A DNA stretch of 24,000 bases from an uncultured Candidatus Saccharibacteria bacterium (GCA_964473795.1 CAYYQT010000004.1:24045-48044), one strand, 5' to 3'; counted from the first letter of the stretch, positions 1-24,000 are shown. Made by a program: numbers and translations. The notes: a model not told the origin generated them from the sequence alone.

Positions 1-168
1 GTTTAAGCCGTAAACATGAATAAACTCGTCAGCAACAGATTCGTATTTTTTTTTACGTAAGAAATCTTGTATTGGTTTTGGTGCAGTATCATACAACACA
101 CGAAAACTCTCTTCAGTTGTGAGATTGTTTGCATCTGAGGTTATGTTTGTTTGTTTGTTTTCTTCCAT
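1..168 (-). CDS. hypothetical protein, N-terminal part only (gene runs off the window start)
   Basis: My own minus-strand translation: ATG at 168-166, then 56 sense codons (MEENKQTNITSDANNLTTEESFRVLYDTAPKPIQDFLRKKKYESVADEFIHVYGLN) open to base 1. It starts 13 nt after the stop of the 182-2230 gene on the same strand. No clear SD and no family recognised. Confidence 0.45.
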   Translation of the reverse strand, partial: MEENKQTNITSDANNLTTEESFRVLYDTAPKPIQDFLRKKKYESVADEFIHVYGLN

Positions 169-181
169 ACTTAATTTAAAA

Positions 182-2230: not shown

Positions 2231-2232
2231 GT

Positions 2233-3846
2233 TTAATTGTTGTTTGATATTGAAATACTATTCTGAAAACATGTTTGAGATGTTTGCAGTGCTGAAGATG
2301 CATTACTAGAGATTGTAGACATTTGCGATATCAACGTACCTCCAGATACAGACAGTCCACCAGCCCCAGAAGGACTAACAACTGAAACACCTTGATAACT
2401 TCCGTTTGGTGTACTTTGTATGCGTGCATACTGGACCTCTTTTGATGATGGCATAACCCCGTTTGTAATACTTAGTATATTCTGAATATCGCCAGCTGCT
2501 TTTTGTACGTCCACAAGAAGTTTTGTTTTTGCTGCTTTTTGTGCTTCTTGTCTAACTGTCTCGAGTTTTTGTTTGCTTGCATTTGCTTTAACAATTGCAG
2601 TCTGACTTTTGTTAATCACATTCTGTACGGTTATTTGTGATGTTGCTGCTGCTGACTTTGTGGATTGCAGACCACTACTACAGACGTTGTATTTTTTGAA
2701 GTCATAATACGAATTACTGTTTGATGGTGGTGTGTAGTTTGTGAGTATCGTTAGTGATGATTTAGCTCCTTTTGCTGAGTTTAGTATTGATGTCCAATTT
2801 GAAATATAATCAGCCAATTCCTGCTCGCTATAGTCTATTTGTGAAATTATTTTTGCTGTTACGGCTTTCGAATTTGAAGAAACAAGTGCTGCGTTAGAGT
2901 ATTGATTCAGATATGAAGCACCCCCTCCTGATGATGGACGTGAAAGTCCAAGTAAACCACCAACTCCACTAATAGCTTTGTTTGCAAGTTTTGATGCTAT
3001 GTTTCCTATTAACTCATCAATCTCATCTGCAGATACTAGAGAATCAATACCAGACCCAAGTGCTTTCTCAAGTTGAGCCTTAATTACGGTTCCTGGTGTT
3101 CCTGGTGATGACAAAAATCCACTGTTCATTGTTAGCTCTGTTGTTCTTGCTTGTCTTGCTTGGGCAACTTGCGTATCAAGTTGCCGTTTTGCAGAGTAGT
3201 AAGTTCCGTATGGATTATTAAGTGGATTAGAGGCCATACTTAACAACCCGTCGATTCCTCCTTGTCTAAAATCACCACGAATAAATGCTTCTGGGTTTTT
3301 AACAACATTTGAAAGTGTGCTTTTATGTGTTGACCAAAAATCACCAGTGCTTGTTTGTTGAAAGTAGGCGTTTCGTACAAGTGTTGCTGCTCCAGAAGCA
3401 AAAGGAGAATTCCCAATTTTTATTTGCGAAATTATTTTCTTTGCAAGTGGTGTTCCTACGTTGATTTTTAAATGTTTGAGTATATTCGTTACAAACATTG
3501 GGCTTAAGTTTCCAGTATTTGGGTCTACATATCCTTTTGATACTGTTCGGATTATGTCATTTGTTGTTGCTTGTAGTAAAGATTTTGCTACAGTCCATGC
3601 TATAGGGTCTAGAACAAATTCTTTTAGGTTTATTTGTTGACCAAGAACAAGTTGAACCCCTTCTTTTACTAATTGTACTATTTGTGTAGAATTTGATATT
3701 TCAAGCTGGGCTGCAGCTGCAGGATCAAAAACAATTATAGCCTCAGCACGCTTTGGGGTCGCAACGGCTATGAGGCTGCTGATGCTAAATGATATTGATA
3801 AAATCAATATGGTAGTTCTATTAAAAAATTTGTTAGAAAAAATCAT
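2233..3846 (-). CDS. secreted protein, TrbJ/VirB5-like N-terminus (putative)
   Basis: 537-aa ORF with signal peptide ILILSISFSISSLIAVATPKRAEA, followed by IIVFDPAAAAQLEISNSTQIVQLVKEGVQLV. This resembles the post-signal x-V-x-D-x(4)-Q...Q helix start of TrbJ/VirB5-type proteins. The remainder is S/T/N/A-rich. There is a 2-nt gap to the downstream gene and a 4-nt ATGA overlap with the upstream gene, so it is probably operonic. Confidence 0.45.
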   Translation of the reverse strand: MIFSNKFFNRTTILILSISFSISSLIAVATPKRAEAIIVFDPAAAAQLEISNSTQIVQLVKEGVQLVLGQQINLKEFVLDPIAWTVAKSLLQATTNDIIRTVSKGYVDPNTGNLSPMFVTNILKHLKINVGTPLAKKIISQIKIGNSPFASGAATLVRNAYFQQTSTGDFWSTHKSTLSNVVKNPEAFIRGDFRQGGIDGLLSMASNPLNNPYGTYYSAKRQLDTQVAQARQARTTELTMNSGFLSSPGTPGTVIKAQLEKALGSGIDSLVSADEIDELIGNIASKLANKAISGVGGLLGLSRPSSGGGASYLNQYSNAALVSSNSKAVTAKIISQIDYSEQELADYISNWTSILNSAKGAKSSLTILTNYTPPSNSNSYYDFKKYNVCSSGLQSTKSAAATSQITVQNVINKSQTAIVKANASKQKLETVRQEAQKAAKTKLLVDVQKAAGDIQNILSITNGVMPSSKEVQYARIQSTPNGSYQGVSVVSPSGAGGLSVSGGTLISQMSTISSNASSALQTSQTCFQNSISISNNN

Positions 3847-4889
3847 TGTGTTTTGTTTTTACTCTGTTTGTTTGCAATGATTGTTGCTAAGTTTACGAAT
3901 GAATACCCCTCGTCTTTAGGAGTGATTACCACACCAGCCTTACGAAACGCACTACCAAGGTCTATGTATGCTTTTGCCAGCGATGTAACTGCCTTTTTAT
4001 ATTCTGGTATTGCAAGAATTACCAAAACAGGGTCTGTGTCTAGTTTTGACATTTCGTTTATCACTGTAGACATGTTTGCATATGCGTTTACAAGCTCTAA
4101 ATGTGCTACTGTGGTTTCTTTTGTTGCAGTAATTTGGGAAAGACTGCTTGCTGCGTCTATGTATAATTTAGATAAAGATTGTAAATGTTTTAAGGCAGAA
4201 ACATCATTATTTTTTGCAGCGTTATTTAGATAGATCAACACACCTTTGTCTTCTGGAATTGTGTATCTAGAAAAAGCTTTTTGCACAGTTGCTGCATATG
4301 CGCGAAGAGCTTTTTGACCCGACCCAGATACTTTTATCTGTGAAATGTTTCTGAAATTTGTGAAAGTGCTTTTGTTACTTGTTACTTGTTGGACGGCATT
4401 TGCTACAATACCTGACATTTGTTGTTTAGAAAGAGGTCTTCCACCGCTCACTTTTTTCATTGTTAGGTATTGTGCAAAAAAGTTCTTTATAAAAACATCA
4501 GTTAGCGATCCTTGTGTTGGTGTAAAGCCCTTAACTACAGAGTTTGAGGTTGTTGTGCTTGTCTTTGTAATTTGCGATGAGGAGGAGTTTTTTGGTGTTG
4601 GAGCTTTTGGAACGATAAGACCTTTTGCAACAGCTTCGCCGTCTGTCATTCCAAGATTAAAAGTATCTATTTTGTGAGGGTTTGTTCCATACAAGACTTC
4701 TTCCCAATCTGGCAATCCGTCGCCGTCACTATCTCTTGAGGAGACTGATTTTAATACAGTTGAAAGGTTCGTTGCATCGACCTTGTTTGTTGTTAATATT
4801 CCGTTCGATAAAAGATATGTTCCGCTGATCATCAACACACTTAATATAATTGCAGATAATATACCCCACTGTTGTTTAATCCAAACCAT
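3843..4889 (-). CDS. N-terminally membrane-anchored protein with DxDxDG calcium-binding-like motif
   Basis: 348-aa ORF with N-terminal TM WGILSAIILSVLMISGTYLL. It carries the motif DSDGDGLPDWEEVLYGTNP (thrombospondin type-3/EF-like acidic loop), an S/T-rich linker and a helical C-terminal domain. Start and stop overlap with the next gene. Confidence 0.6.
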   Translation of the reverse strand: MVWIKQQWGILSAIILSVLMISGTYLLSNGILTTNKVDATNLSTVLKSVSSRDSDGDGLPDWEEVLYGTNPHKIDTFNLGMTDGEAVAKGLIVPKAPTPKNSSSSQITKTSTTTSNSVVKGFTPTQGSLTDVFIKNFFAQYLTMKKVSGGRPLSKQQMSGIVANAVQQVTSNKSTFTNFRNISQIKVSGSGQKALRAYAATVQKAFSRYTIPEDKGVLIYLNNAAKNNDVSALKHLQSLSKLYIDAASSLSQITATKETTVAHLELVNAYANMSTVINEMSKLDTDPVLVILAIPEYKKAVTSLAKAYIDLGSAFRKAGVVITPKDEGYSFVNLATIIANKQSKNKTQ

Positions 4890-4953
4890 AATACATATAT
4901 AGTATAGCAGCCAAATAGTAATACTGCGTGCTTTTTGTGTGAAGATTTGTGCA

Positions 4954-5739
4954 TTAACCCTTTATTAAATCAATTTTATTTGAAAGTTCTATCCATGTGT
5001 CTAAGTGTATATCCTCTGCACGTGCATCTATACTTATTTTCAGTGTGGAAAACGTTTTTAATAGAGGTTCTTTTTTGCTTATTGCAGATAGGTTTTTTAG
5101 AAGTTTTTTGCGTTTATGTGCAAACCCGGCATGTAGAATTGTAAAAAACCTTTCCTCATGAGAGGTGTCTTTGAAAGGTGTTGAAATGTTTTTTATTGAA
5201 ATAACAGCAGAGTCTACTTTTGGTGCTGGTATAAAAGCACCGCGAGGGACTGTAAATTCATACTTTGGATTTCCGTACGCTTTTACAGATAAAGACAGCA
5301 GGCTCTCTTTAGTGTCGCGTGCAATACGTATAGCGACTTCTTTTTGTACCAAAAGAGTCATTGATTTTGGCTTGTTACTTGTTTCTAAAAATTTTCTAAT
5401 AATTTCACCTGTTATATAATACGGGATATTTGCTACTAATATATATGGTTTTGTTATTGTTGCTGGGTCAAACTTCCTGATATCCTTTGTTTGTATTTCT
5501 AGTTTTTTTATTGATATTTCATTTTTAAATATATTGTGAAGTTCTTCAGAAAGATTTTCATCAGCTTCTATTGCGATTACGAACGTTGAACGTTCTAAAA
5601 GAGGAAGGGTTAACATGCCTGTACCAGGTCCTATTTCAAGAACTGTATCGTTGCTTGAAATACCAGAAACATCAGCAATACGTTCTGCTGTGCGTCTGTG
5701 CATTAAAAAGTTTTGTCCTAGTGATTTTTTTGCAAACAT
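4954..5739 (-). CDS. rsmA: 16S rRNA (adenine1518/1519-N6)-dimethyltransferase RsmA/KsgA
   Basis: Contains the SLGQNFL motif and the SAM-binding EIGPGTGMLT. I place the start at MFAKKSLGQNFL (CAT at 5737-5739) rather than at the track start 5793, which would overlap the upstream helicase gene by 47 nt. Confidence 0.9.
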   Translation of the reverse strand: MFAKKSLGQNFLMHRRTAERIADVSGISSNDTVLEIGPGTGMLTLPLLERSTFVIAIEADENLSEELHNIFKNEISIKKLEIQTKDIRKFDPATITKPYILVANIPYYITGEIIRKFLETSNKPKSMTLLVQKEVAIRIARDTKESLLSLSVKAYGNPKYEFTVPRGAFIPAPKVDSAVISIKNISTPFKDTSHEERFFTILHAGFAHKRKKLLKNLSAISKKEPLLKTFSTLKISIDARAEDIHLDTWIELSNKIDLIKG

Positions 5740-5746
5740 AAGATAG

Positions 5747-7651
5747 TTAAAGGTATATAGACGTACCGTAGTCTGTTTTTGAATAATCAACATGTCCAGG
5801 GTCTATATCCTCTATAAAAGATGACGGTTCTTGCCTGTAGTCTGTACCATAAATACGTCGAACATTTACAAGGGTTAGTATTAGTCGCAGTTTTGCGCGT
5901 GTTATTGCAACGTAGAAAAGACGTCTTTCTTCCTCTTCATCTCTTTCCTCGTTTCCCATTCCTTCATGTGGAAAGAGCCCTTCTTCCATTCCTGTTACAA
6001 ATACTGTGCCAAATTCCAAACCTTTAGCAGCATGTACTGTCATAAGTGTGACACCTACTGTATCGGTTTTTCTGTCTAGCTCATCTTGGTCGCTTGTAAG
6101 CGCTGCGTCAGCAAGAAAAGAGGATATTCCTTCTAGCCCAACGGATGTGTCATAACGTGTGGCAAGTGTCGCTAGTTCGTGTATGTTCCCAAGCCGTTCC
6201 CGCTCATCTTCTGTGCCGGTTGAAAGAGTTTTTTCGAGTCCGCTTTTTTCAATTACAAGACGTATAAAATCAGATGGTTTTGTTTTTTCTGATGCTAATG
6301 AAAGGTCTTCAACTATTGTTTCAAATTTTTCAACTTTTACTTTTTCTCCTGGACGTAATAAATCGCGTTGTCCAGCTACTAGTTTCCCTAGTGTTACTTT
6401 CCCTATTCCTCGCGACGGGGCTTGAACTGCTCGCATGCGGTCTGCTTCGCGTGTTGGTTCTAAAGCTAAACGTATCCACGCAAGAACGTCCTTAACCTCT
6501 TTTCTGTCAAAGAAACGAGTACCAAGAAGCTTGTATGGAACACCGGCGTGCAACAGTCCCTCTTCAAGTGCTCGCGACTGAAAGTTTGTGCGAAATAGTA
6601 TTGCGATGTTTTCTGGCGACACCCCTTTTGTAATTTCAGTTTTAATTTCTTTAGCAATCCATGATGCCTCTGCTTCAGCGTTTATTGCGGTATGTATTGT
6701 TATTTTATCTCCAACGGGATTGTTCGTTATAGACTTCTTTTCTTTTCTGTTTTTGTTATGTTCAATAATTGTATTTGCAGCTGCGACTATCGTTCCTGAT
6801 GACCTGTAATTTTGTTCAAGAATTATAGTTTTTGCTTTTGGGTAAGTTTTTTCAAACGAAAGAAGGTTGTCTATAGTAGCCCCTCTCCATGTATAGATAC
6901 ATTGGTCTATATCTCCAACAACAAACAGGTTCTTGTGTTTTCCAACAAGCGTATCTACGAGCCGTCCTTGCAACTCGTTTGTGTCTTGGTATTCGTCTAT
7001 ATGCACGTAGTGAAATCGTTCTTGAACTTTCGAACGTATGTCCGCGTGTTCATCAAGTAGTCTCATTGGAAGAGAAATAAGATCATCAAAATCGAGAGCT
7101 TTTTCTTTTTGAAGCGCTTCGTTATATCGCGTCCACACTTCACTTGATACGCGCGCCCTAAAACTGTCACGCCCATGTTTTTGTTTGAATTCTGAAGATG
7201 TCATTCCTAGGTTTTTTGCTTTCGAGATGCGCGAAAGTATAGCTCTTGGCGGAACCTCCTTGGGGTCTATATCCATAGCCTTTAGCGCAGCTTTTACAAC
7301 ACGTTCAGAATCATCTCGTCCAAAAATTGAAAAATATCTAGGAACTCCAATCGCACTACCATATTCTTCAAGTAGAATACGTCCAAGACCGTGGAATGTT
7401 GCTATTGTTGGCATTGGAGAGTCATCACCAAGTTGCGCTGTTAATCGTGTACGCATTTCGCGTGCTGCTTTATTTGTAAATGTGACAGCGAGTATGTTTT
7501 CTACAGGAACACCTTTTGTTATTAAATGGTAAATCCGTGTAGTTAGTACGCGTGTCTTTCCAGAACCAGCGCCAGCAAGAACAGACACTGCCCCATCGGT
7601 TGAGCACACAGCTTCTTTTTGTTGTTCGTTTAGTCCGTCAAGATAACTCAT
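5747..7651 (-). CDS. pcrA: ATP-dependent DNA helicase, UvrD/PcrA/Rep (SF1A) family
   Basis: 634-aa ORF with Walker A AGAGSGKT, motif II DEYQDTN, and the motifs TFHGLG, QNYRS and VHAAKGLEF in canonical order. Confidence 0.9.
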   Translation of the reverse strand: MSYLDGLNEQQKEAVCSTDGAVSVLAGAGSGKTRVLTTRIYHLITKGVPVENILAVTFTNKAAREMRTRLTAQLGDDSPMPTIATFHGLGRILLEEYGSAIGVPRYFSIFGRDDSERVVKAALKAMDIDPKEVPPRAILSRISKAKNLGMTSSEFKQKHGRDSFRARVSSEVWTRYNEALQKEKALDFDDLISLPMRLLDEHADIRSKVQERFHYVHIDEYQDTNELQGRLVDTLVGKHKNLFVVGDIDQCIYTWRGATIDNLLSFEKTYPKAKTIILEQNYRSSGTIVAAANTIIEHNKNRKEKKSITNNPVGDKITIHTAINAEAEASWIAKEIKTEITKGVSPENIAILFRTNFQSRALEEGLLHAGVPYKLLGTRFFDRKEVKDVLAWIRLALEPTREADRMRAVQAPSRGIGKVTLGKLVAGQRDLLRPGEKVKVEKFETIVEDLSLASEKTKPSDFIRLVIEKSGLEKTLSTGTEDERERLGNIHELATLATRYDTSVGLEGISSFLADAALTSDQDELDRKTDTVGVTLMTVHAAKGLEFGTVFVTGMEEGLFPHEGMGNEERDEEEERRLFYVAITRAKLRLILTLVNVRRIYGTDYRQEPSSFIEDIDPGHVDYSKTDYGTSIYL

Positions 7652-7774
7652 TTTTAATACTATACCGCGAAAATCTTTTTTATACTTTGTGTATTAAAAA
7701 ATAAACATACGTAATGTATTTTGTTTTGCTAAAAACAGTATAAAATCATACGCACCTTGATATATAAAATGGGG

Positions 7775-7802
7775 TTGACGTATATGCTGCGAGGGGTATA
7801 AT
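7775..7802 (+). promoter_or_regulatory. candidate sigma70 promoter for the LysM/M23 peptidase gene
   Basis: TTGACG (7775-7780), a 16-nt spacer, then TATAAT (7797-7802). It lies about 130 nt upstream of the GTG start at 7931. Confidence 0.5.
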
Positions 7803-7930
7803 CTCGGTACTGGAAGTTATGGATGTGTGAAAGAAATGGCTCTGTTAAGCCGTTTTTGTACTAGGAAGCTTGGTATTGACCTATAATTTTTATTTTAAAA
7901 CAAATACAATCCCTTGCTGTTTATCGCACT

Positions 7931-9043
7931 GTGCGAAAATATCAAAATATATATAAGATAATTACAATCGCATTAATTGCGTTATTTGTAATGACGTCTG
8001 TTTTTATGTCTACGCCAAGTTACGCTGCTGCTTTTTGGCCGTTTTCAAATGTATTAGCACACACAAGAACAAAAACTACTTTTATATCTGGCTCCAACGT
8101 TTCTTTATTACATGCCGCAACAAATTTAAACCCCAGCCCGATAAAAAAAATATCGGTAATAGCAATGACTGGGGGTTCATCTCTAATAGCAGAATCTGGA
8201 CCTGACGGGACCGCTGCAGACATAAATCCAGCCGCAGCAAATGGTCAAATCTCACTATATGTAGTTCGTAGTGGGGACTCTTTGTCGGAAATAGCAAAAA
8301 TGTTTGGCGTTTCTGAGAAAACAATCTTATGGGCAAATAATATAAGGAACGCTAGGCTTATACGTGCTGGTGATACTCTACTTATTCTGCCTGTGTCAGG
8401 AATAAAACATACTGTAAAAAAAGGAGAAACACTTACTTCAATAACAAAAAAATATCGTGCAAACAGTAAAGACACGGCTCTTTATAATAGTCTTGACCAG
8501 AAAAAACCTCTTGTTGTTGGTTCTGTTGTGATAATCCCTGGAGGTGAAATGCCAACTGTAAGAAGGTATAAAAAGTCTTATACTTATTCTAGGAGGTCTC
8601 GTCACTATCACAGGATTAGAGTTGCGCCATCAAACCCTTATCGTGGAGGAAGTGGTCCTGCTCTACCTGGTTTTTTCAGTAATCCATTATCTAGAGGAAT
8701 AGTTACGCAAGCACTCCATGGTTGGAATGCTTTTGATATAGGAGCAAGAACAGGAACTCCGATTCGTGCTGCAGCTGCTGGGCGCATTATTGTGTCTCGT
8801 GTCGGTGGTTGGAATGGTGGTTATGGAAATTATGTTGTTATTAACCACGGTAATGGGACACAAACTCTTTATTCACATATGGTTCGTGATGTTTCAAGTG
8901 TTGGACAACGTGTTCGTGCTGGGCAAGTAATTGGTTATGTCGGTGAGACTGGTGAAGCTACAGGACCTCATTTGCATTTTGAAGTTCGCGGTGCGCGTAA
9001 CCCGTTCGTTGGTTGCAGGGTTGGTTCAAGGTGTAATTTCTAA
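7931..9043 (+). CDS. LysM-domain M23 family peptidoglycan metalloendopeptidase
   Basis: GTG start with an N-terminal TM/signal segment (IITIALIALFVMTSVFMSTPSYAAA). Two LysM repeats are present (YVVRSGDSLSEIAKMFGV..., HTVKKGETLTSITKKY...). M23 motifs are HGWNAFDIG, GGYGNYVVINHGNGTQTLYSHM and GPHLHFEVR. Confidence 0.9.
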   Translation: MRKYQNIYKIITIALIALFVMTSVFMSTPSYAAAFWPFSNVLAHTRTKTTFISGSNVSLLHAATNLNPSPIKKISVIAMTGGSSLIAESGPDGTAADINPAAANGQISLYVVRSGDSLSEIAKMFGVSEKTILWANNIRNARLIRAGDTLLILPVSGIKHTVKKGETLTSITKKYRANSKDTALYNSLDQKKPLVVGSVVIIPGGEMPTVRRYKKSYTYSRRSRHYHRIRVAPSNPYRGGSGPALPGFFSNPLSRGIVTQALHGWNAFDIGARTGTPIRAAAAGRIIVSRVGGWNGGYGNYVVINHGNGTQTLYSHMVRDVSSVGQRVRAGQVIGYVGETGEATGPHLHFEVRGARNPFVGCRVGSRCNF

Positions 9044-15913: not shown

Positions 15914-17377
15914 CTAACAAACGTGGTGTTTGGACATTATTTTCTGTATTTCCTCATCTTCTCGTTTTTCACGCTCTTGCTTTCCAGACTCTCCAAGTAT
16001 CTGTAGTTCTTTGTCTGATAATGAAAGTAGACTCAAAATACGTTTGTTTAAATACTCTTCACTATTCTTCTTTGGGTCTTCTAGTACTTCCTCAAGAAGT
16101 GCGTGAAGTGTCCAGCCTATTCTAGGGCCAGCCTTTACACCAAAGTCATTCATAAGTTTGTTCCCGTCTGTTTTAAGCATTGATACTGAAATTGGATCCA
16201 TTAAGGCTTGTTCTACCATTGCCTTATACTTTCTAAACCTAAACGGTTGTTCTTTTGGTCGGCCTGTGCCAATACGGTCGCATATTCTTAAATTAAGTAA
16301 ATCCCATATGTGTTCTTTCCCAACGTTACAAATCATACGTCTTACGGCTGATATTGTAATTTGGTCGGGGTCAGAGAAAAACATATGCCATCTAACAAGT
16401 TTAACTACCTTGTCTATAGTTTCACGTGAAAAGTGCAGTTCCTCAAGTGCTTTTTTTGTTGTTCTTGAACCAACAACATCATGTCCGTGGAAAGTCCACT
16501 GCTTTTTTTCATTTGACCAACGTCTAGTTTGTGGTTTGGATATGTCGTGAAATAGGGCAGCTAGTCGTATTTCAAAACTCCAGTTTTTATCTGCTGCATG
16601 TTGGGTGGTACGCATTAAGTGTTCAAAAACATCATAAGAATGTGCTTGATTTTGCTCTATACCAATACCTTTTACGAGCTCTGGAGATATGTACTCAAGA
16701 ACACCAAGTCTAGCAGCAAGTACTAACGCCATCATTGGTTGGTCAGAATTAAGTATTCGTACTAACTCATCGCGTATACGCTCTTTAGATATATGACTAA
16801 GGTTCGATGCTTTTTGTTGGATTGCTTCTGCTGTGTTTGTGTCTAGTGCAAAACCTAGCTCTGCTACAAAACGTAGTGCCCTCATTAAACGTAAACCATC
16901 TTCCTCAAACCTTTCAAATGGACTCCCAACTGTTTGTAGGACACCAGCTTTAAGGTCATTGTGTCCTTTATAAGGGTCTATTAGCTGTCCTTTAGCATCA
17001 TCGTATGCAATTGCATTTATTGTGAAGTCTCTTCGTGCCAGGTCGTCTTCTATAGAGTCTCCGAAAGTTACGGAGTCTGGTCTACGTTTGTCAGCATAAG
17101 TTGACTCTGTTCTGTATGGGGTAATTTCTACTATTTTAATAGTTTTGTCCTCTGTAACGTTTACAACTCCAACTGTTCCAAAGTCGTTTGTATAAAAAGT
17201 CTCATCAAACAATGATTGAATATCGTCTGGTTTTGCGTTTGTTGTTATGTCCCAATCCTTTGGTTTTCTGTTTAAATATAAGTCCCTAACACAGCCGCCA
17301 ACAAGGTAGGCTTCAAATCCTGCGTTTCTTAGTGTTTTTGTTATGTTTTGTATTTCACGTGGAACGTCGTACCTCAT
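15914..17377 (-). CDS. cca: CCA-adding tRNA nucleotidyltransferase with HD domain
   Basis: 487 aa with the class II nucleotidyltransferase head LVGGCVRDLYL...DWDITT and RDFTINA. An HD-domain signature is present (AALFHDISKP). Confidence 0.85.
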   Translation of the reverse strand: MRYDVPREIQNITKTLRNAGFEAYLVGGCVRDLYLNRKPKDWDITTNAKPDDIQSLFDETFYTNDFGTVGVVNVTEDKTIKIVEITPYRTESTYADKRRPDSVTFGDSIEDDLARRDFTINAIAYDDAKGQLIDPYKGHNDLKAGVLQTVGSPFERFEEDGLRLMRALRFVAELGFALDTNTAEAIQQKASNLSHISKERIRDELVRILNSDQPMMALVLAARLGVLEYISPELVKGIGIEQNQAHSYDVFEHLMRTTQHAADKNWSFEIRLAALFHDISKPQTRRWSNEKKQWTFHGHDVVGSRTTKKALEELHFSRETIDKVVKLVRWHMFFSDPDQITISAVRRMICNVGKEHIWDLLNLRICDRIGTGRPKEQPFRFRKYKAMVEQALMDPISVSMLKTDGNKLMNDFGVKAGPRIGWTLHALLEEVLEDPKKNSEEYLNKRILSLLSLSDKELQILGESGKQEREKREDEEIQKIMSKHHVC

Positions 17378-17480
17378 AGTAGGAATACTAATACTCTTAT
17401 GGTTTTTTTCCTAGTGTGACAGTAGTATGTGGTGTAGGATACAAACACGTTCGCATTTGTTTTTTTCACAGAATGTAAAC

Positions 17481-17552
17481 GCCCCTATGGTGAAATGGAT
17501 ATCACAACTGACTTCGGATCAGTCGTTCTGGGTTCGAGTCCTGGTAGGGGCA
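17481..17552 (+). tRNA. tRNA-Arg (anticodon TCG), no encoded CCA
   Basis: Hand-folded cloverleaf. The acceptor is GCCCCTA/TAGGGGC and the D arm is GTGA..TCAC. The anticodon stem ACTGA/TCAGT carries loop CTTCGGA. The T arm is CTGGG-TTCGAGT-CCTGG (two G-U pairs) and the discriminator is A. Confidence 0.8.
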
Positions 17553-17645
17553 CAACACTTTTTTAAGTACCGTACTATATGAATGGTTTCAGTGTGTTTG
17601 GTTGTTGTAACCGCAGCTAAATAAAAGCTGTGATATGATTTTGTA

Positions 17646-18206
17646 ATGAAAATTGGAGTTATGGGTGCACACGGAAGCTTTTCTGAAAAAGCAGGGGAAG
17701 AATATATTTCTAAACATAAAGTTAAGTTTGGTAAAATTATTCCTCTCGTTAGTGCAGAATCAGTACTTAAGTCTGTCGAAGATGGTTCTGTTGATATAGG
17801 AATCTTTCCAATTGAAAACTCAAATGGTGGAATTGTGACTGAAGCGGTATACGCAATGGCTGGGCATAATTTTTCGATTAAAAGTATGTTTGAGATTGAT
17901 GTACATCATATGCTTTTGGTTAAGCCTGGTACTAAAGGTTCTTCAATACAAACGATATGCTCACATGACCAGGCGTTAAGGCAGTGTCGTATGTATCTTA
18001 AAAGGGTATGGGCAGGGGCTGATGTAACCCCGTACAGCGATACGGCAAAGGCTGCTGAAGGTTTAAGTAGTGGTATTTTGCCTGATACCACAGCGGTTAT
18101 TGCGCCTCGGAGATGTTCTGAGCTTTATGGGTTAGAAATACTAGAAGAGTCTATCCAAGATTTGAAGTTTAATTACACTACGTTTATTGTTGCTGTTAAG
18201 AAATAA
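17646..18206 (+). CDS. pheA: prephenate dehydratase catalytic (PDT) domain protein without ACT domain
   Basis: 186 aa. MKIGVMGAHGSFSEKA...IFPIENSNGGIV...SHDQALRQC...NYTTFIVA matches the PDT-domain motif order (the canonical N-x-TRF is NYTTF here). The ORF ends directly after the PDT domain. Confidence 0.7.
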   Translation: MKIGVMGAHGSFSEKAGEEYISKHKVKFGKIIPLVSAESVLKSVEDGSVDIGIFPIENSNGGIVTEAVYAMAGHNFSIKSMFEIDVHHMLLVKPGTKGSSIQTICSHDQALRQCRMYLKRVWAGADVTPYSDTAKAAEGLSSGILPDTTAVIAPRRCSELYGLEILEESIQDLKFNYTTFIVAVKK

Positions 18207-18237
18207 AACAAACAGTGAATAAATTTTTAAGACGAAA

Positions 18238-18257
18238 AACTCCATAAAAATGGAGTT
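18238..18257. terminator. short hairpin after pheA
   Basis: AACTCCAT-aaaa-ATGGAGTT. The T-run (TTTTTC) follows only on the minus strand and an A-run precedes it on the plus strand, so the strand assignment is ambiguous. Confidence 0.35.
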
Positions 18258-18455
18258 CGAAAATACTAACAATCAAATTAAACCTTTAATTCCACTCGAT
18301 TATTAACGTGAGTTTGTATATATAATCAATAAAAGGGAGGTCTTCATGCAGAAAGCAAAAATAGTGGAATTTAGTTCCACTTCTGTTGAGTGTTTATAGG
18401 TTTCTTTTAATATCTCTTTGAATATTCCAACAAAAGCTGAAATCCTCAAAAGATA

Positions 18456-18484
18456 GGACGAGCCAAGAGTTGGCTAGCTCGTCC
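18456..18484 (-). terminator. GC-rich hairpin immediately after the 169-aa ORF
   Basis: GGACGAGC..CCAA-gag-TTGG..GCTCGTCC. On the minus strand it starts 11 nt after the TAA (18498-18496) and is followed by TATCTTTTG. Confidence 0.55.
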
Positions 18485-18495
18485 AAAAACCTAGG

Positions 18496-19005
18496 TTACT
18501 CTTGTTGATGAATGGCACGAAGCTCCTCATCTGTCATGCTGGTGAGTTCCGTTGTCATGCTGGTGGTTTCCGTCGCACAGAAATCACCATTAAACGTCAG
18601 CAGAAAGTACAACCCCTGGAGCTCAATAATCTGTCTTTTTCCTTTGTAGTGGCCAGTCGTTAAGACCACCACTCCCTCTGAGCGGATTTTTTCTTTTTCC
18701 TCCAGGAGGAGTTTTTCTTGCATGTCATTAATTTTGGAGCTGAGGTTACCCTCCGTAAAAATCTCGTCGCAGTTAGCAGCTGTGCGACGGATCTTAATTG
18801 CCTCCCTCCTCCACAACTCCTTTTGCGGTGCCGTGCCGCGTCGCTTTTCAACCTCGGCGGCTTTTTTGTACACCCGCTTGCGGTCAGCGTAGCAGGTCTT
18901 TTTTCCAGTCTTAAAGGTCTGTTTGACCTTTTTAACGGCATGCCAGTATCTCTCTTGGGTTTCTTTAAGCAAGAAACCCCTGTCTTTAGAAAAAACCTCA
19001 TACAT
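18496..19005 (-). CDS. orphan hypothetical protein (169 aa), basic N-terminal half
   Basis: Strong SD AAGGAGG lies 5 nt before the ATG (minus strand, 19005). G+C is clearly above the surroundings: 27/60 in line 18601 and 33/60 in line 18841. The K/R-rich N-terminal ~100 aa are followed by a beta-like segment (VVVLTTGHYKGKRQIIELQGLYFLLTF). The C-terminal heptad is duplicated. No family recognised. Confidence 0.65.
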   Translation of the reverse strand: MYEVFSKDRGFLLKETQERYWHAVKKVKQTFKTGKKTCYADRKRVYKKAAEVEKRRGTAPQKELWRREAIKIRRTAANCDEIFTEGNLSSKINDMQEKLLLEEKEKIRSEGVVVLTTGHYKGKRQIIELQGLYFLLTFNGDFCATETTSMTTELTSMTDEELRAIHQQE

Positions 19006-19296
19006 AACAGCCTCCTTGTGTTGAACTGGTGGAATTGTTTCAAGAAACTTGCGAAATTATTGGCACGTACCATTCCTCTGAAAGACATAAACGAATTTCA
19101 ATAACCTTTTTGTTCTTTTAAAGGCTTATCATGTTTTTAACTGCTTGCCAAGGATTGTAGTTAAACGAAACTGTAAGCTCTTTTAATATATATACAAAAA
19201 TACGTTTGTATATATGTTGTATTGTTTCATCCAAAAGTATTGTAATAATGTACAGTAAATGAAAAATTCATTGAGTGTGCTATCATTCACCACAAA

Positions 19297-19367
19297 GCGG
19301 ATATGGTTTAGTGGTAAAATACGTCCTTGCCAAGGATGAGTCGGGAGTTCGATTCTCCCTATCCGCA
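19297..19367 (+). tRNA. tRNA-Gly (anticodon GCC), no encoded CCA
   Basis: Hand-folded. The acceptor is GCGGATA/TATCCGC and the D arm is GTTTAGTGGTAAAAT. The anticodon stem CGTCC/GGATG carries loop TTGCCAA. The T arm is GGGAG-TTCGATT-CTCCC and the discriminator is A. Confidence 0.9.
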
Positions 19368-19614
19368 CAGAGTAATACTTTGTTTCTATACGTCATTTAG
19401 CACAGTTTGCGTATGTTTAAGCTGTTAAACATTTTGTAGGTATGTTTTTTGTATAAATGATTCAGTCTTTCTAGGTTATTCGTTAAGAAAATTTATTTTT
19501 CAATAAATACGAAGAAGCTGTCATTATGAATTATAGTGTTTATTATAAGAGTCTTATTAAGAAATGCCTTTCTTAAAGAGTTTTGCATTAGTGGTTTTAC
19601 TCTTTCTTTAGCTC

Positions 19615-19643
19615 TTGACAGGCAGGTCTCTATATGCTATACT
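19615..19643 (+). promoter_or_regulatory. near-consensus sigma70 promoter driving the 339-aa ORF transcript
   Basis: TTGACA (19615-19620), a 17-nt spacer, then TATACT (19638-19643). It points toward the ORF starting at 19860, which implies a leader of about 210 nt. Confidence 0.65.
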
Positions 19644-19859
19644 ATCTTAATAGAAATTTAAGTTGTTCTTTGAAAATTTGATACTTAAGTTAAGGTGAGA
19701 TTTAGATATTCCATTTTGGTTTTGATTATTTGAAATTAAAATGGAGTATCTACTCCCGTCTGGTACTGACCTCCTGGACGTAAAACATTTCACTGAGCGC
19801 ATTTTTTGCGCTCGCGCTCTACCATCAAAGAAGGGTGCTTTGCGCCCAAGGAGACCCAA

Positions 19860-20879
19860 ATGTCATACAATTCACAGAATACACCTTTTGTCATCCGTCG
19901 CAACAACGCCGATGCTGCAGCCGCGGCAGACGGCTACAACCTCAATGACCTGGAGGGTTGCATGGAAGCCGCTTACGAGGGGCAGCAGTACGTCACTCGG
20001 AACGCCTTTCGGCGTTTCAGATGCCGGATTACCGGCGAAGAGTACCTGAAAATGGACGGAGCGACCATCGATTGGAAGCACCTGTCCGGCCTCGTTCGCG
20101 AGGCGGTTGAAGCCTCTGGCTTTGAAAATTTACCATGGAATCTGGACAACTTGGTTAATGCTAATGTTGCCCCAGGTTCGTATCCGTTTTTCGCCAGCGA
20201 AGCTGGCAAGGAACGGGTGGTCAAAAAAGTGCAACGTTTTTGTGGTTGGCTTCGTGCTGCCGCAAAATTGCCGGGTGTCCGGCGTGTTATCGAGAAGACA
20301 CAGTCTTCTTGCGGCATGTGGTCACCGCGCACCTTGGTACATCTGTGGGACCTTGCGTCCCATCACCCGTCACCGGGTGCACTGGAGCGGAAGCTCTGGA
20401 GTGTCCGGCGTCGAGCAGACGCAATCTTCTCTGCTTACAAAGGAGAACAAAAAGCGTCATGGGCGAGCATTGCCCAATCACTGCTGATAACTCAGCAGAC
20501 AGGAAAAGCGGCTGTCATGGCCGTAGCGGGAACGCTTTCGGGCGATACCTTCCGCATGTACCGCAACGCCAGAGACTGGCTGGTTGAGCTGCATCTGTGC
20601 AGTAAAGCCGACCAGAGCGATGGAGTCATCGCTCGTCGTGAGGCGACGCCGCGGTTTGTTAAATTGGGTATCGCGGTTTATCGCATCGCCCTGCAAGACC
20701 AGTACCACAACTGGTCGTTCCAGTGGTTGGTGCGGACGGCCGATGGTCGTACGTATCACTCCAACTGGGGTGGAGTGATAGAGACTCTCCACGACGCACT
20801 CCATGCGTGGAAGGAGCAGGACAAACTCGCTGCGATGGAAGCCGATTTTATGGGCTTCTTAAAGGGCGAGGAGGGTTAA
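19860..20879 (+). CDS. orphan hypothetical protein (339 aa) in GC-rich foreign block
   Basis: SD AAGGAG (19848-19853) lies 6 nt before ATG 19860 (MSYNSQNTPFVIRR...). The track's start at 19806 has no SD. It is soluble, with no TM and no catalytic motif I can name. G+C is 34/60 in line 20281, against 23/60 in host line 22141. Confidence 0.7.
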   Translation: MSYNSQNTPFVIRRNNADAAAAADGYNLNDLEGCMEAAYEGQQYVTRNAFRRFRCRITGEEYLKMDGATIDWKHLSGLVREAVEASGFENLPWNLDNLVNANVAPGSYPFFASEAGKERVVKKVQRFCGWLRAAAKLPGVRRVIEKTQSSCGMWSPRTLVHLWDLASHHPSPGALERKLWSVRRRADAIFSAYKGEQKASWASIAQSLLITQQTGKAAVMAVAGTLSGDTFRMYRNARDWLVELHLCSKADQSDGVIARREATPRFVKLGIAVYRIALQDQYHNWSFQWLVRTADGRTYHSNWGGVIETLHDALHAWKEQDKLAAMEADFMGFLKGEEG

Positions 20880-21153
20880 TGCCCTCTCGTTGTCCGACAG
20901 GATTCGTATTCGGCAGGTAATTGCTCTGCCGGTACAGAATCTTGGCTGCGGGAACGTGGTTGGGCAGGTAGGGATTTTATCCCCGCAATATGGCTCATAC
21001 CGAACCTCGAAAACGGCTATGTTCGAGGTGTGGCAATGAATCTTTATCGCCACCACCACGTTGAATGTCCTTAAGTATCAAATGTGGATGGTGAGTAATC
21101 TACACACCCTCCATAGCTAAAAGGTTTGAGGAGCACCTTAGTACAAGCTCCTC

Positions 21154-21204
21154 ACTCTCTCTGGATGTGCGTCTAGACTGATGAGTCCAAAAGGACGAAA
21201 GAGT
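21154..21204 (+). ncRNA. hammerhead ribozyme, type III topology
   Basis: ACTCTC|TCTGGA-tgtgcg-TCTAGA-CTGATGA-GTCC-aaaa-GGAC-GAA-AGAGT. Core nucleotides CUGAUGA, GAA, A15.1-U16.1 and H17=C are all present. Stem I is a 6-bp hairpin, stem II is 4 bp with an AAAA loop, and stem III is an open 5-bp helix. Predicted cleavage is after C21159. Confidence 0.8.
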
Positions 21205-21320
21205 TTTGGTAATATATAAGCTCGTAACAGTAAAATGTGATATACGGTATGCAGGCTTTAATACAAATAAATGTATTTTGGTTTAAACACTAAACGTCAT
21301 TTTTATAGCTCTCGTATTTC

Positions 21321-21348
21321 AAAATACCGTCATAACACGGTATTTTTT
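21321..21348 (+). terminator. rho-independent terminator downstream of the hammerhead
   Basis: ATACCG-tcataaca-CGGTAT followed by TTTTTTG, preceded by AAA. Confidence 0.65.
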
Positions 21349-21405
21349 GTTTTATGTATCAATTTAAGGTATTTTTTGTCCTGTAGTTTTGGATGTCTTT
21401 ATAAC

Positions 21406-21435
21406 TGTGGACAAACCTGTGTATAGTGTGGATAA
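21406..21435 (-). promoter_or_regulatory. pair of DnaA-box-like 9-mers
   Basis: TGTGGATAA (21427-21435) is the perfect reverse complement of TTATCCACA. TGTGGACAA (21406-21414) has one mismatch, the same orientation and 21-nt spacing. A weaker third copy, TGTGGATTT, lies at 21526-21534 over the yraN start. Confidence 0.35.
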
Positions 21436-21526
21436 AAGACAAAGGACATTTTGTGTGTGTTTAATAGAATTCTTAAAATGTGCATAAGTATAGCCGTATT
21501 TTTCTAAGTCACGGTATACTGTCTAT

Positions 21527-21925
21527 GTGGATTTATCTAAGTCATCAAAAAAAGAAATAGGAGCTTATGGAGAGGTTGTTGCTGCTAAATATCTAAAAAA
21601 GCACGGTTTTAAGGTTTTAGACAGAAACGTTACATTTAAAATTGGTGAGATTGATATAGTTGCAAAAAAAGACCTTGTGTTACATATTGTTGAAGTAAAA
21701 AGTATCGCTTGTAATGAGTTTCCTGACACGCGTTACGGTAGTAGTGGTTTGTATAGTCCAGAGGAAAACCTTAATTACTTAAAAATACAACAGGTTTCTA
21801 GAGTAGGTCAGTGGTATATTGCTAGTAAATCTTGGGAAGGTGAGTGGCAGATTGATGGAATAACAGCTTTGTTACGTCGGCATGATGGAATGGCAAGGAT
21901 TAGTTATTTTCCACATATTGTGTAA
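21527..21925 (+). CDS. yraN: YraN family (UPF0102) endonuclease-like protein
   Basis: 132 aa with a GTG start. GAYGEVVAAKYLKKHGFKVLDRN...GEIDIVAKK...VEVKS matches the YraN PD-(D/E)xK-like pattern. Confidence 0.8.
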   Translation: MDLSKSSKKEIGAYGEVVAAKYLKKHGFKVLDRNVTFKIGEIDIVAKKDLVLHIVEVKSIACNEFPDTRYGSSGLYSPEENLNYLKIQQVSRVGQWYIASKSWEGEWQIDGITALLRRHDGMARISYFPHIV

Positions 21926-21983
21926 ACTCTGGTAGGATATAGAAACTTGCCGTACAGTGTTTGAAGAAGATACGTTTTGTGGT

Positions 21984-22057
21984 CGGGGTGTAGTATACCG
22001 GTAGTACGCATCCTTTGGGAGGATGTTGACTGGGTTCGACTCCCAGCACCCCGACCA
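21984..22057 (+). tRNA. tRNA-Pro (anticodon TGG), CCA encoded
   Basis: Hand-folded. The acceptor is CGGGGTG/CACCCCG. The anticodon stem CATCC/GGATG carries loop TTTGGGA. The T arm is CTGGG-TTCGACT-CCCAG. The discriminator is A, followed by CCA (22055-22057). Confidence 0.9.
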
Positions 22058-22124
22058 CAGTACATATCCATTATGTATCTGGTATATATTATTACGGTAA
22101 GGATATATTTATTTCATATACATT

Positions 22125-23192
22125 ATGTTGATATACGACACAGTTAAAAATTTAGTAATACTTTACAGTGAGCCAGCTGCTTATGCTGTGGTAGTCACTG
22201 TCGTGTCCGTAGTGGTTTTTGCTTTTATACAAAACAGGGTAGTCGTTCGTCTGGATAAGTTATCCAAAAAGACAAAGAACAACGTAGATGACGCTATTGT
22301 CGCGATGGTTAAAAGTATTAAACCATCGTTTTATTGGTTTTTGTCCGTATACCTTGGGTTTCAGACATTACCAATGTCTTTGTCTTTTTCGGTAATGCTT
22401 AACGGGGTGCTGTTGGCCGTTGTCCTTTGGTATGTGCTTCGTGCAGCTAGTATTGCAATAGACATGTGGCTTGCAGGTACAACGAAAGATGCTGGTGAAA
22501 AATCCGCCAGGCACTTCCTTGGAATAATTACCAAGTCCAGTTTGTGGATTGTTGCGATACTCCTACTGCTTTCTAATCTTGGGATAAACGTAACGTCTTT
22601 GGTTGCTGGCCTTGGAATAGGAGGTGTTGCCATCGCGTTTGCTTTACAAAATATACTTACAGATTTGTTTAGTTCATTTGCTATTTATTTTGACAAACCT
22701 TTTGTTGTTGGTGATTACATTGTAATTGGCGACCAGACTGGAATAGTTGAAAAGATTGGAATTAAAACTACAAGGTTGCGTGCTCTTCAGGGTGAGGAGA
22801 TTGTTATTTCTAACAAGGAGCTTACATCGACTCGTATCCAAAACTTTCATTCGATGCAGTCTAGAAGAATACAAATGACTTTTGGTATTTTATACGAAAC
22901 GCCTATTGAGACGGTTTCTGCACTTCCTAAAAAAATAAAAGACATGGTGGCTGGTATAAGTGGTATTAAAATAGATAGAGTTCATTTTTACGGATTTGGA
23001 AACTCGTCACTTGATTTTGCACTTGTTTATTACGTCGAGTCTGGTGAGTATTCTGAATACATGGATAAGCAGCAAGAAATAAACCTTTCTATTTTGAAAT
23101 TGTTTAGAAAAGAGAACGTTGAGTTTGCATACCCAACTCAAACTGTGTATATGTCTTCGACTGCTACTGACTCGAAGAAAGGGCTTGAGTAA
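22125..23192 (+). CDS. mechanosensitive ion channel, MscS family
   Basis: 355 aa with several N-terminal TMs. The pore helix and beta domain read GLGIGGVAIAFALQNILTDLFSSFAIYFDKPFVVGDYIVIGDQTGIVEKIGIKTTRLR, which is typical of MscS. Confidence 0.85.
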   Translation: MLIYDTVKNLVILYSEPAAYAVVVTVVSVVVFAFIQNRVVVRLDKLSKKTKNNVDDAIVAMVKSIKPSFYWFLSVYLGFQTLPMSLSFSVMLNGVLLAVVLWYVLRAASIAIDMWLAGTTKDAGEKSARHFLGIITKSSLWIVAILLLLSNLGINVTSLVAGLGIGGVAIAFALQNILTDLFSSFAIYFDKPFVVGDYIVIGDQTGIVEKIGIKTTRLRALQGEEIVISNKELTSTRIQNFHSMQSRRIQMTFGILYETPIETVSALPKKIKDMVAGISGIKIDRVHFYGFGNSSLDFALVYYVESGEYSEYMDKQQEINLSILKLFRKENVEFAYPTQTVYMSSTATDSKKGLE

Positions 23193-24000
23193 GCAGTGTT
23201 TCTAGTTGTTGTTTTGTTTGTGAAAACTCGGCAATATTTTCAGCTGGTGTTTTGGCTAGCATAGTGTCAAAAGATTGTGACTGTTCTTGTGAATAGTCGC
23301 GTCTGATATAGGTTGCCGTAATTGCGTTTAAGTTACGGCTTTGTGTTGAGCCGCTTATGGTACTTGTGGTTATTGTACCTATCAGGTTACCGTATGCATC
23401 TACTATACCCCCTCCAGAGGACCCTTCTTGGGCTGCAGCAGTGCCTCCAAGTGATATAAGGTCTATTGTACTAGTCACAAAGGTAAAAACGTCTTGTATA
23501 GACGCATATACTATTGTTGGATATAAAGATGTTTGTATCTCGCTAACAGATAGGAATTGTGCTGCGTATGACCCTATTACGACGGGAGTACCTTTTTTTT
23601 GTTGGTGTGTTGCAAGTGGTAGGTATTGAAAGGTCGCTGGGAGTGGTTTTTGTGTCGCACTTTTTGTTATAAAAAGGAGTGCAATGTCGTGTTCTCCTGT
23701 ACCTGTTGGTTGTGTTTGTTTAACTACAGTTCTGTTTTCAGAAATCCACGCTGGAGATATGAACATTAACTTTGCTTTATAGGCTGGTCTTGCTGGGCTG
23801 CCTGTTCTTATTGTACAAGACGTACTGTTTTTGGTCGGGTAGTTTTTTAGAAGAAAGTACTGTGCTATGTGTGCATTGGTTAGTATGATTCCTCTTGGGT
23901 CGATAATCGTACCGCTTCCCGAAATATATCTAGAAGATCCGCTTGCAGAGCTTGTACATATAATGTTTACAAGCGCTGCTCGTATTTTTGTAGCACTTGC
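23164..24000 (-). CDS. trypsin-like (S1 family) serine protease, C-terminal part (N-terminus beyond window end)
   Basis: I extended the track ORF (23164-23766) by hand. The frame stays open to base 24000 (...GTIIDPRGIILTNAHIAQYF...). The catalytic triad context is TNAHI (His), HDIALL (Asp) and EGSSGGGIV (Ser). Confidence 0.8.
   Translation of the reverse strand, partial: ASATKIRAALVNIICTSSASGSSRYISGSGTIIDPRGIILTNAHIAQYFLLKNYPTKNSTSCTIRTGSPARPAYKAKLMFISPAWISENRTVVKQTQPTGTGEHDIALLFITKSATQKPLPATFQYLPLATHQQKKGTPVVIGSYAAQFLSVSEIQTSLYPTIVYASIQDVFTFVTSTIDLISLGGTAAAQEGSSGGGIVDAYGNLIGTITTSTISGSTQSRNLNAITATYIRRDYSQEQSQSFDTMLAKTPAENIAEFSQTKQQLETLLTQALSSSQ

Follow-up and report, generated by a model that had tools for sequence, protein, structure and literature searches.

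Here we describe two GC-rich blocks lying between pheA and yraN in a 24,000-nucleotide (nt) stretch of the genome of an uncultured Candidatus Saccharibacteria bacterium (GCA_964473795.1, CAYYQT010000004.1:24045-48044); the whole stretch is referred to as the window, and all positions are counted on it. The blocks, A and B, carry one orphan gene each, ORF169 and ORF339. These genes are real foreign cassettes, and at least one of them is swapped between strains. The interpretation that we favour, at a rough probability of 55%, is that block B (approximately 19621/19661 to 21204) is a self-contained, horizontally exchanged accessory-gene cassette of the type that some phages string together, that block A is independent of it, and that the interval between pheA and yraN is a variable slot. 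Block B is a well-defined variant of the known phage accessory gene punctuated by hammerhead ribozymes, and it has a protein family and a leader RNA that are new, and a composite 3' end.

The window is AT-rich (GC content 0.389). Block A (18486-19090) has a GC content of 0.46 and block B, as first delimited (19741-21215), of 0.534, compared with 0.294 in the spacer between the blocks and 0.38 in the flanks. The excess GC of both blocks is concentrated at synonymous positions: GC at third codon positions (GC3) is 0.565 in ORF169 and 0.578 in the full frame of ORF339 (0.612 for the longest open reading frame (ORF) call), and lies between 0.225 and 0.354 in all 17 other ORFs of at least 120 amino acids (aa) in the window. 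Past the last base of the hammerhead, the GC content falls from 0.50 to the host level of 0.30 inside 50 nt. The original prediction, made from this stretch of DNA, of two compositionally foreign blocks is thus confirmed by the GC3 outliers, and its spot G+C counts (27, 33, 34, 20 and 23 of 60) were reproduced exactly. Confirmed as well were the divergent orientation of the two genes and their Shine-Dalgarno (SD) sequences, AAGGAGG (19011-19017, minus strand) and AAGGAG (19848-19853, plus strand). The expected lack of mobility genes also held: Pfam, PHROGs, PADLOC, NCBIfam and PDB sequences gave no match for ORF339 or ORF169, including none to integrase, recombinase or transposase models, and no other credible ORF lies in 18440-21215.

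Block B and the sequence directly behind it contain the following features:

19615-19643, plus strand: promoter of the sigma-70 type (TTGACA, 17 nt, TG-TATACT; 11 of 12 matches)
19661-19859, plus strand: structured 5' leader with the SD, conserved with contigs L001 and L133
19676-19689, plus strand: 5' arm of the end complementarity, ATTTGATACTTAAG, 14 nt, perfect
19860-20879, plus strand: ORF339 as called, 339 codons to the in-frame TAA at 20877-20879; main body of the family protein
20880-21074, plus strand: C-terminal continuation, in frame, a conserved family domain (CPLVVRQDSYSAGNCSAGTESWLRERGW...) ending with the TAA at 21072-21074
21070-21083, plus strand: 3' arm of the end complementarity, CTTAAGTATCAAAT, overlapping the stop codon of the full-length frame
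21121-21153, plus strand: pseudoknotted hairpin, immediately 5' of the hammerhead
21154-21204, plus strand: type III hammerhead ribozyme, predicted to cleave after C21159
21321-21346, plus strand: terminator-like hairpin in AT-rich DNA, 115 nt past the hammerhead, belonging to the cassette or to the host

The right-hand block ends at a ribozyme, as had been predicted, and the hammerhead is real. Its core is canonical (CUGAUGA at 21178-21184, GAA at 21197-21199, the pair A21200-U21158 and C17 at 21159), with stems III ACTCT/AGAGT, which is the open one, I TCTGG/CTAGA and II GTCC/GGAC arranged around CTGATGA...GAA. Directly upstream lies an H-type pseudoknot, formed between AAGGT (21121-21125) and the loop sequence ACCTT (21135-21139) of the hairpin GAGGAGC/GCTCCTC (21128-21134/21147-21153); the composite module begins approximately 50 nt 3' of the full-length stop codon. 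The same module was found 3' of the family gene in contigs L005, L007 and L141 (42-47% protein identity), in L141 with a different sequence and equal architecture. Among the four sequences, 98% of the pairing cells were paired, compared with 42-50% in slid controls, and 10 out of 26 module pairs had changed on both sides, which was reached in 0 of 500 shuffles; the compensatory changes are located in stems I and III and in the upstream hairpin. With this canonical core and these covarying stems, the ribozyme probably cuts the nascent RNA after C21159. At the position of the hammerhead, L001 and L139 have an ordinary terminator and L131 has a AAAGGTTC-hairpin followed by a U-tract, and because the relatives devoid of a ribozyme carry such signals there, we infer that the hammerhead stands in for termination. 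The proposal that each gene has a terminator of its own therefore applies to ORF169 and does not extend to ORF339, for which the next terminator is the hairpin past the hammerhead. A literature search returned no description of hammerheads in Patescibacteria or the candidate phyla radiation (CPR).

Hammerheads that flank single genes have been described in prophages, e.g. around ardA in Agrobacterium (Perreault et al. 2011, PMC3088659), and the hairpin-hammerhead module of block B recurs 3' of genes in viral contigs; the locus is hence not without a known counterpart, as the original prediction had supposed. Hammerhead cores with a stem II of the block B type are frequent in IMG/VR, and the core pattern was rejected as a diagnostic since viral contigs contain it too often. 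With a covariance model of the entire module, 48 copies were found in 100 core-bearing IMG/VR loci, with up to five per contig; none of the IMG/VR contigs carrying the core encodes a member of the ORF339 family. In one of them (L072), four out of five module copies are positioned directly 3' of a minus-strand ORF, and the ORFs linked to the module are orphans and one gamma-glutamyl cyclotransferase, assigned by PHROGs to the class of morons or auxiliary genes. In L134, the module lies between two orphan ORFs; a 190-nt leader comes right behind it, and a second copy of this leader is found upstream of the previous ORF. L007 carries more small cassettes, in which a repeated leader and a 3' hairpin module occur.

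These contigs offered some further observations. L134 (positions 1-5107 of a 5.2-kb contig) is wholly GC-rich, holds at least three co-oriented, hyper-structured orphan ORFs and resembles a cassette array; its leader copies are at 513-701 and 2221-2408, and its hammerhead, at 2134-2220, has a long insertion in stem II. The leader of the small cassettes (GGGGATCTCGAGAGAGTGAACC...) was found in L007 at 5990-6340 and 7578-7950 and in L008 at approximately 5370-5395. In both contigs, GGGGATCTCGAGAGAGTGAACC is complementary, in reverse, to TCACTCTCTCGAGAT, the cleavage-site region of the hammerhead in the same locus; nothing similar was found in the window.

At the other end of the cassette, the conserved unit begins at approximately 19661, in AT-rich sequence, and the predicted start at 19741 has to be moved accordingly. 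The 200-nt leader comprises a long hairpin (19703-19752), further hairpins and invariant single-stranded blocks. It is kept in L001 and L133, whose proteins are 48-65% identical, with 11 compensatory pairs among the three sequences, and an Rfam search matched it to no family, RAGATH included. The 14-nt complementarity between the 5' and 3' parts of the transcript, for which we estimate a chance expectation of approximately 0.01 in 1.66 kb, may serve end-to-end pairing of the mRNA. L001 retains this pairing over its own stop codon, with one compensatory change from A-U to G-C; the observation covers the window and L001. An anti-SD-like motif, CCUCCUGGA(G/C)G(A/U)AAAA, occurs in both cassette transcripts (19770-19785 and 18694-18709), and in the ORF339 leader it falls in an invariant single-stranded block.

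ORF339 belongs to an unannotated, new protein family. A single-sequence search yielded 23 homologues, a profile search 29, and an exhaustive hidden Markov model search 365 clusters at 50% identity. Members of the family are basic (pI 9-9.5), tryptophan-rich proteins, and their genes exceed the rest of their contigs by 8-17 GC points in all seven loci measured. Among 34 members, no significant Pfam match was found (best E = 0.015, in one member each) and none to any RNA-dependent RNA polymerase (RdRp); a PDB sequence search with the family was likewise negative. For the closest full-length member, AlphaFold gave a confident model (predicted local distance difference test (pLDDT) 91.1, predicted template modelling score (pTM) 0.76), and Foldseek searches with it against PDB and BFVD found nothing below E = 0.08 and no match to a polymerase fold.

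Most members of the family have approximately 65 extra C-terminal residues (...G[FY]CPL..DSYxAGNCxxGTxSW..GW..R.FIP..WL.P.L...VR.VA). In the window, the codons for this domain follow the TAA at 20877-20879 directly and in frame, and therefore the true gene has approximately 404 codons (19860-21074) and one nonsense codon, in place of the 339-aa ORF originally called. Other assemblies of the locus give the equal truncated 339-aa product or the equal stop. In a distant member (L131/L132, 32% identity), an in-frame TAG (L131 3290-3292) stands eight alignment positions upstream of the window TAA and also precedes an intact domain, of 70 codons; no further in-frame stop was present among 16 loci examined. 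Two independent stops at one domain boundary suggest, as far as sequences can tell, either programmed read-through or repeated adaptive loss of the domain. The UAA-U context, which is that of the window, speaks against efficient read-through.

Transcription of block B from the promoter at 19615-19643 would yield an RNA that has the conserved structured leader and encodes a basic protein of approximately 400 aa; in this lineage, the gene is truncated by the TAA ahead of the C-terminal domain. A cut after C21159 would leave an mRNA whose end is protected by the pseudoknot hairpin and carries a 2',3'-cyclic phosphate, and would uncouple the mRNA from downstream sequence, which is the job of a terminator. 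At least the slot of block B varies by strain, its content being replaced without a mobility gene.

The comparison with a related strain, proposed at the outset, bore out the variability of the insert: NCBI contig L004 (from the sample of GCA_006243085.1), approximately 99.9% identical in the flanks, carries another GC-rich gene from 19621 on. Over 3.6 kb, L004 and the window are separated by 1-2 substitutions per kb outside a patch in ORF169, and L004 diverges right after the shared TTGACA -35 box (19620|19621). The alternative gene (GC3 0.66) is hyper-structured as well and had no family or annotation match in Pfam, PHROGs, PADLOC, NCBIfam and PDB sequence searches. In L001, a homologue of ORF339 fills the slot between pheA and tRNA-Gly. 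The arrangements in L001 and L004 therefore mark the neighbourhood from pheA through tRNA-Gly to mscS as a hot spot in which GC-rich cargo is interchangeable. The host gene between the blocks is:

19297-19368, plus strand: tRNA-Gly(GCC)

The locus could alternatively be a decayed tRNA-targeting integrative island or prophage, whose integrase and att sites were lost and whose cargo was left. It adjoins tRNA-Gly, with two more tRNAs within 2.7 kb, its composition is foreign, its ribozyme module is of a phage type, and the L001 homologue also lies beside tRNA-Gly. However, the 3' end of the tRNA is not repeated (its last 20 nt have no second copy with up to three mismatches in the window), neither ORF matches an integrase or phage protein, and the tRNA separates the two blocks. 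The strains part 252 nt 3' of the tRNA, within the promoter and not at the tRNA, and a scan of 14 other family loci revealed no tRNA in them; L001/L130 is the only other locus to have one. Adjacency to the tRNA is incidental, the idea of an element built around it is not supported, and we regard a decayed island as unlikely. Weak AT-rich repeats flank block B (19655/21361 direct, 19516/21284 inverted); the left inverted arm lies within DNA common to the other strain and is therefore not a terminal repeat of the swapped segment.

A further property of the cassettes is the predicted folding of their RNA. The minimum free energy (MFE) of the block B transcript (19661-21159) is -640.6 kcal/mol, compared with -516.5 +/- 9.2 for dinucleotide shuffles (z -13.4). 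For the full frame of ORF339, z was -10.5 with dinucleotide shuffles, -8.9 with codon permutation and -5.9 with synonymous-codon shuffles, which keep the protein and the codon usage. With the latter shuffles, z was -6.3 to -6.9 for ORF169, -4.3 to -9.3 for seven other family members and -5.0 to -11.5 for unrelated GC-rich cassettes (the L134 ORFs, orf348 of L007 and the L004 gene), as compared with -2.8 to +1.25 for the 17 host ORFs of the window and +0.2 to -1.4 for GC-rich host genes of L006 (GC 0.51-0.57). The sense strand had the lower MFE in nine out of nine cases, with an excess over shuffles of 10-27%. The folding is local, only 4-8% of the MFE pairs spanning more than half of the element, and no long exact inverted repeats were found in the folded sequences. 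Its position is only partly conserved (consensus energy -179 kcal/mol, as against -528 for the window sequence alone), and synonymous sites are therefore arranged for folding in general and not for one structure. In the interpretation that we favour, the coding sequences are under selection for pervasive, lineage-fluid RNA secondary structure, of which the purpose, at a guess, is RNA stability or evasion of nucleases. Folding at the level of these cassettes is typical of structured RNA virus genomes and not of bacterial mRNAs, and we know of no DNA-encoded bacterial genes described as having synonymous sites set for RNA-virus-like folding.

The original prediction had raised the idea of an RNA-derived element, to which this extreme predicted folding of coding RNA lends indirect support short of proof. 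The cassettes would then be DNA-resident copies of an element whose selected stage is RNA, such as the launch site or endogenised copy of an RNA replicon or satellite, or a cassette mobilised through RNA; the hammerhead would set the unit length of the RNA, and genome-scale folding would protect or package it. All eight family members tested and the unrelated cassettes share the MFE excess (z -4 to -11.5), absent from host genes, GC-rich ones included (z around 0), and the strand bias points the same way. So do the hammerhead, the 5'-3' complementarity across the ORF, the in-frame stops ahead of an intact domain in two distant members, the wholly GC-rich L134 with several such ORFs, repeated leaders and a hammerhead, and the orphan proteins unmatched in DNA phage or plasmid collections. 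Against it, at least seven loci lie within DNA contigs amid ordinary host genes, there is a single ribozyme in a single polarity, and the folding is local rather than rod-like and for the most part not conserved by position. Moreover, neither an RdRp nor a reverse transcriptase was found and the protein model matches no polymerase fold, the module occurs many times in IMG/VR viral contigs (of DNA or RNA origin), and the short family contigs L138-L141 have no terminal overlap and do not appear circular, which is a weak test. On balance, an RNA stage of this type is doubtful and would come as a surprise. Equally speculative is the broader notion that Patescibacteria and their relatives host a class of GC-rich orphan cassettes selected as RNA, i.e. 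as a transcript delimited by a hammerhead, paired at its ends and folded on a genome scale, which would persist, move or act as RNA. We would put little weight on its possible examples, a DNA-launched RNA replicon or satellite or an mRNA made to survive transfer or nuclease attack, and it is with the same reserve that a leaky or split stop before the C-terminal domain could then be viewed as a programmed two-product design.

Block A is an independent GC-rich orphan in an adjacent slot, with the following features:

18456-18484, minus strand: intrinsic terminator of ORF169, a strong hairpin
18496-19005, minus strand: ORF169, the block A orphan, encoding a basic protein (pI 9.3)
18532-18634: hypervariable patch in the C-terminal part of ORF169, from the comparison with strain L004
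19011-19017, minus strand: SD of ORF169

In the comparison with L004, the indel of the hypervariable patch is a tandem duplication of 21 nt, and 17 substitutions fall within 62 nt, as against 1-2 per kb in the flanks; the substitutions are not adenine-specific and the patch is therefore not like that of a diversity-generating retroelement. A relationship of ORF169 to the helix-turn-helix protein of L001 was considered and ruled out, the two being unrelated. Downstream of ORF169, the region 18401-18466 (its terminator and approximately 50 nt beyond) is 83% identical over 70 nt to L001 7261-7330, just 3' of the ORF339 homologue, and may be a conserved slot boundary or a small RNA. The pheA genes of the two species share only 68% identity, and the cargo upstream of this region differs (ORF169 in the one, the ORF339 homologue in the other). 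A 17-codon ORF (MQKAKIVEFSSTSVECL) with a strong SD (AAGGGAGG) is located at 18347-18400, between pheA and the ORF169 terminator.

That ORF169 and ORF339 form a two-gene accessory system, e.g. a toxin-antitoxin or defence pair, as had also been proposed, might be read from their divergent orientation, their shared GC richness and extreme folding, their strong SDs and the variable region in which they lie. Yet ORF169 is kept, at 89% identity, in strain L004 where ORF339 is replaced, which already contradicts such a system. In addition, this copy is the single homologue of ORF169, no case of ORF169 beside another member was seen among the family loci examined, PADLOC gave no match, and the two proteins show no similarity, which also rules out ORF169 as kin to the ORF339 family; a functional pair is thus highly improbable. 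An assembly chimera or binning artefact joining GC-rich reads to an AT-rich genome, for which the sharp GC steps at the block edges might speak, is barely conceivable and can be dismissed because the junctions recur in independent assemblies: Logan contig L002 (SRR14803398) matches 19340-24000 at 100% identity, Logan contigs of two other runs (SRR6439370 and SRR6439372) have the identical gene set with equal spacing, L004 reproduces 15999-19620, and homologues of ORF339 lie within long contigs of other metagenome-assembled genomes (MAGs; two of the records titled Patescibacteria and one Caldisericia) amid ordinary genes.

Several points weigh against our own interpretation of block B as a phage-type accessory-gene cassette. 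The ORF339 family was not found in IMG/VR, INPHARED phages or PLSDB plasmids, no phage genes are near ORF339 and neither ORF matches a phage family; the absence of the family from these sets and of phage genes nearby leaves the RNA module as the sole pointer to a phage origin. The hammerhead itself scores 37.2 bits (E = 1.4e-5) with Rfam RF00008, below the gathering threshold of 48.5, its stems being short, and the model of block B is drawn from sequence. The contig of the other strain stops within the alternative gene and shows the left-hand end of the swap. The exchange itself would likely have gone through recombination between homologous sequences of the conserved flanks, following uptake of DNA or its delivery by a phage. 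Furthermore, a cassette explanation leaves the extreme folding unexplained, the L072 phage genes being only moderately folded (z +0.35 to -3.4 with synonymous-codon shuffles), and the recurrent in-frame stop at one domain boundary unaccounted for. Finally, the family genes of L007 and L008, whose proteins are 33% identical, have common neighbours and may therefore belong to a stable cluster in some lineages. In both, a TrmB-like regulator (L007 2884-3678, L008 3641-4429) is transcribed divergently to the family gene and a large protein containing GNAT lies farther out, and the sequences suggest that this neighbourhood is conserved in that lineage.

Among known systems, the accessory-gene cassette that we favour is closest in description to the prophage hammerheads, in which a canonical hammerhead adjoins an accessory gene of varying identity and is presumed to divide long transcripts into mRNAs of gene length (Perreault et al. 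2011, PMC3088659). The occurrence of hairpin and type III hammerhead modules in multi-copy arrays of viral contigs is a further likeness. Block B differs in that one cassette stands alone, in a chromosomal hot spot of one Patescibacteria genome and with no phage genes near. Its combination of pseudoknot hairpin and hammerhead, its leader of 200 nt, its protein family and its hyper-structured coding region are outside that description. As in hammerhead-punctuated phage arrays, the module follows the family gene in some cases (the window, L005, L007 and L141) and unrelated ORFs in others (L134 and L072), but the window has one hammerhead and is not in a phage with several. An upstream hammerhead was detectable neither in the window nor in L001; a relic noticed by eye upstream of the L001 cassette was rejected, since the covariance model gave it no support. 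With phage morons and other hot-spot genes, block B shares a single gene with its own promoter and 3'-end signal, a composition unlike the host and a presence that varies between near-identical strains, although it does not lie within a prophage and its 3' end would be made by a ribozyme instead of a terminator. In work by Weinberg et al. from 2015, unannotated gene families reportedly recur beside twister and hammerhead ribozymes in bacteria and phages, often with further RNA motifs (RAGATH).

Block B resembles integron cassettes in the order of an ORF and a structured 3' element, in the varied cargo behind a resident promoter by strain and in the arrays of such units elsewhere (L134, L007), whereas no integron integrase was seen in the interval, the cassette has its own long leader, and its 3' element is, by sequence, a catalytically complete hammerhead and apparently not attC. 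With Obelisks, ribozyviruses and retrozymes it has in common a type III hammerhead and an orphan protein without detectable structural relatives, and its folding excess of 10-27% matches the range of structured RNA viruses with genome-scale ordered RNA structure (GORS). Unlike viroid-like RNAs, it resides in chromosomal DNA, has a single ribozyme in a single polarity, no sign of circularity and no polymerase, and folds locally and not as a rod, its genes residing in MAG and metagenome DNA contigs; unlike a retrozyme, it has a single hammerhead and not hammerheads in both terminal repeats. The likeness to the genome-scale ordered structure of RNA viruses is the large MFE excess, and the difference is that no RdRp was found.

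Elsewhere in the window, tRNA genes are located at 17481-17553, 19297-19368 and 21984-22057. The tRNA-Gly and tRNA-Arg genes have no encoded terminal CCA, which together with a gene for a CCA-adding enzyme at 15914-17377 is consistent with a host of the Patescibacteria type. In L005, an Rce1/CPBP-like gene just 3' of the hammerhead (7395-8579) has a host-like GC content of 0.39 and a synonymous-shuffle z of -18.7, without long repeats.

For 15 years, bacterial hammerheads have been without a clear job, and block B offers a compact one, the making of mRNA 3' ends by a ribozyme, because one conserved gene has a hammerhead where its relatives have a terminator. The locus also defines, for study, an unannotated protein family of 365 clusters, a 200-nt leader RNA, and a pseudoknot-hammerhead module shared with uncultured phages. 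Moreover, if the folding result holds, foreign genes in these bacteria with reduced genomes would stabilise or shield their mRNA in a new way, or would have a life stage at the level of RNA.

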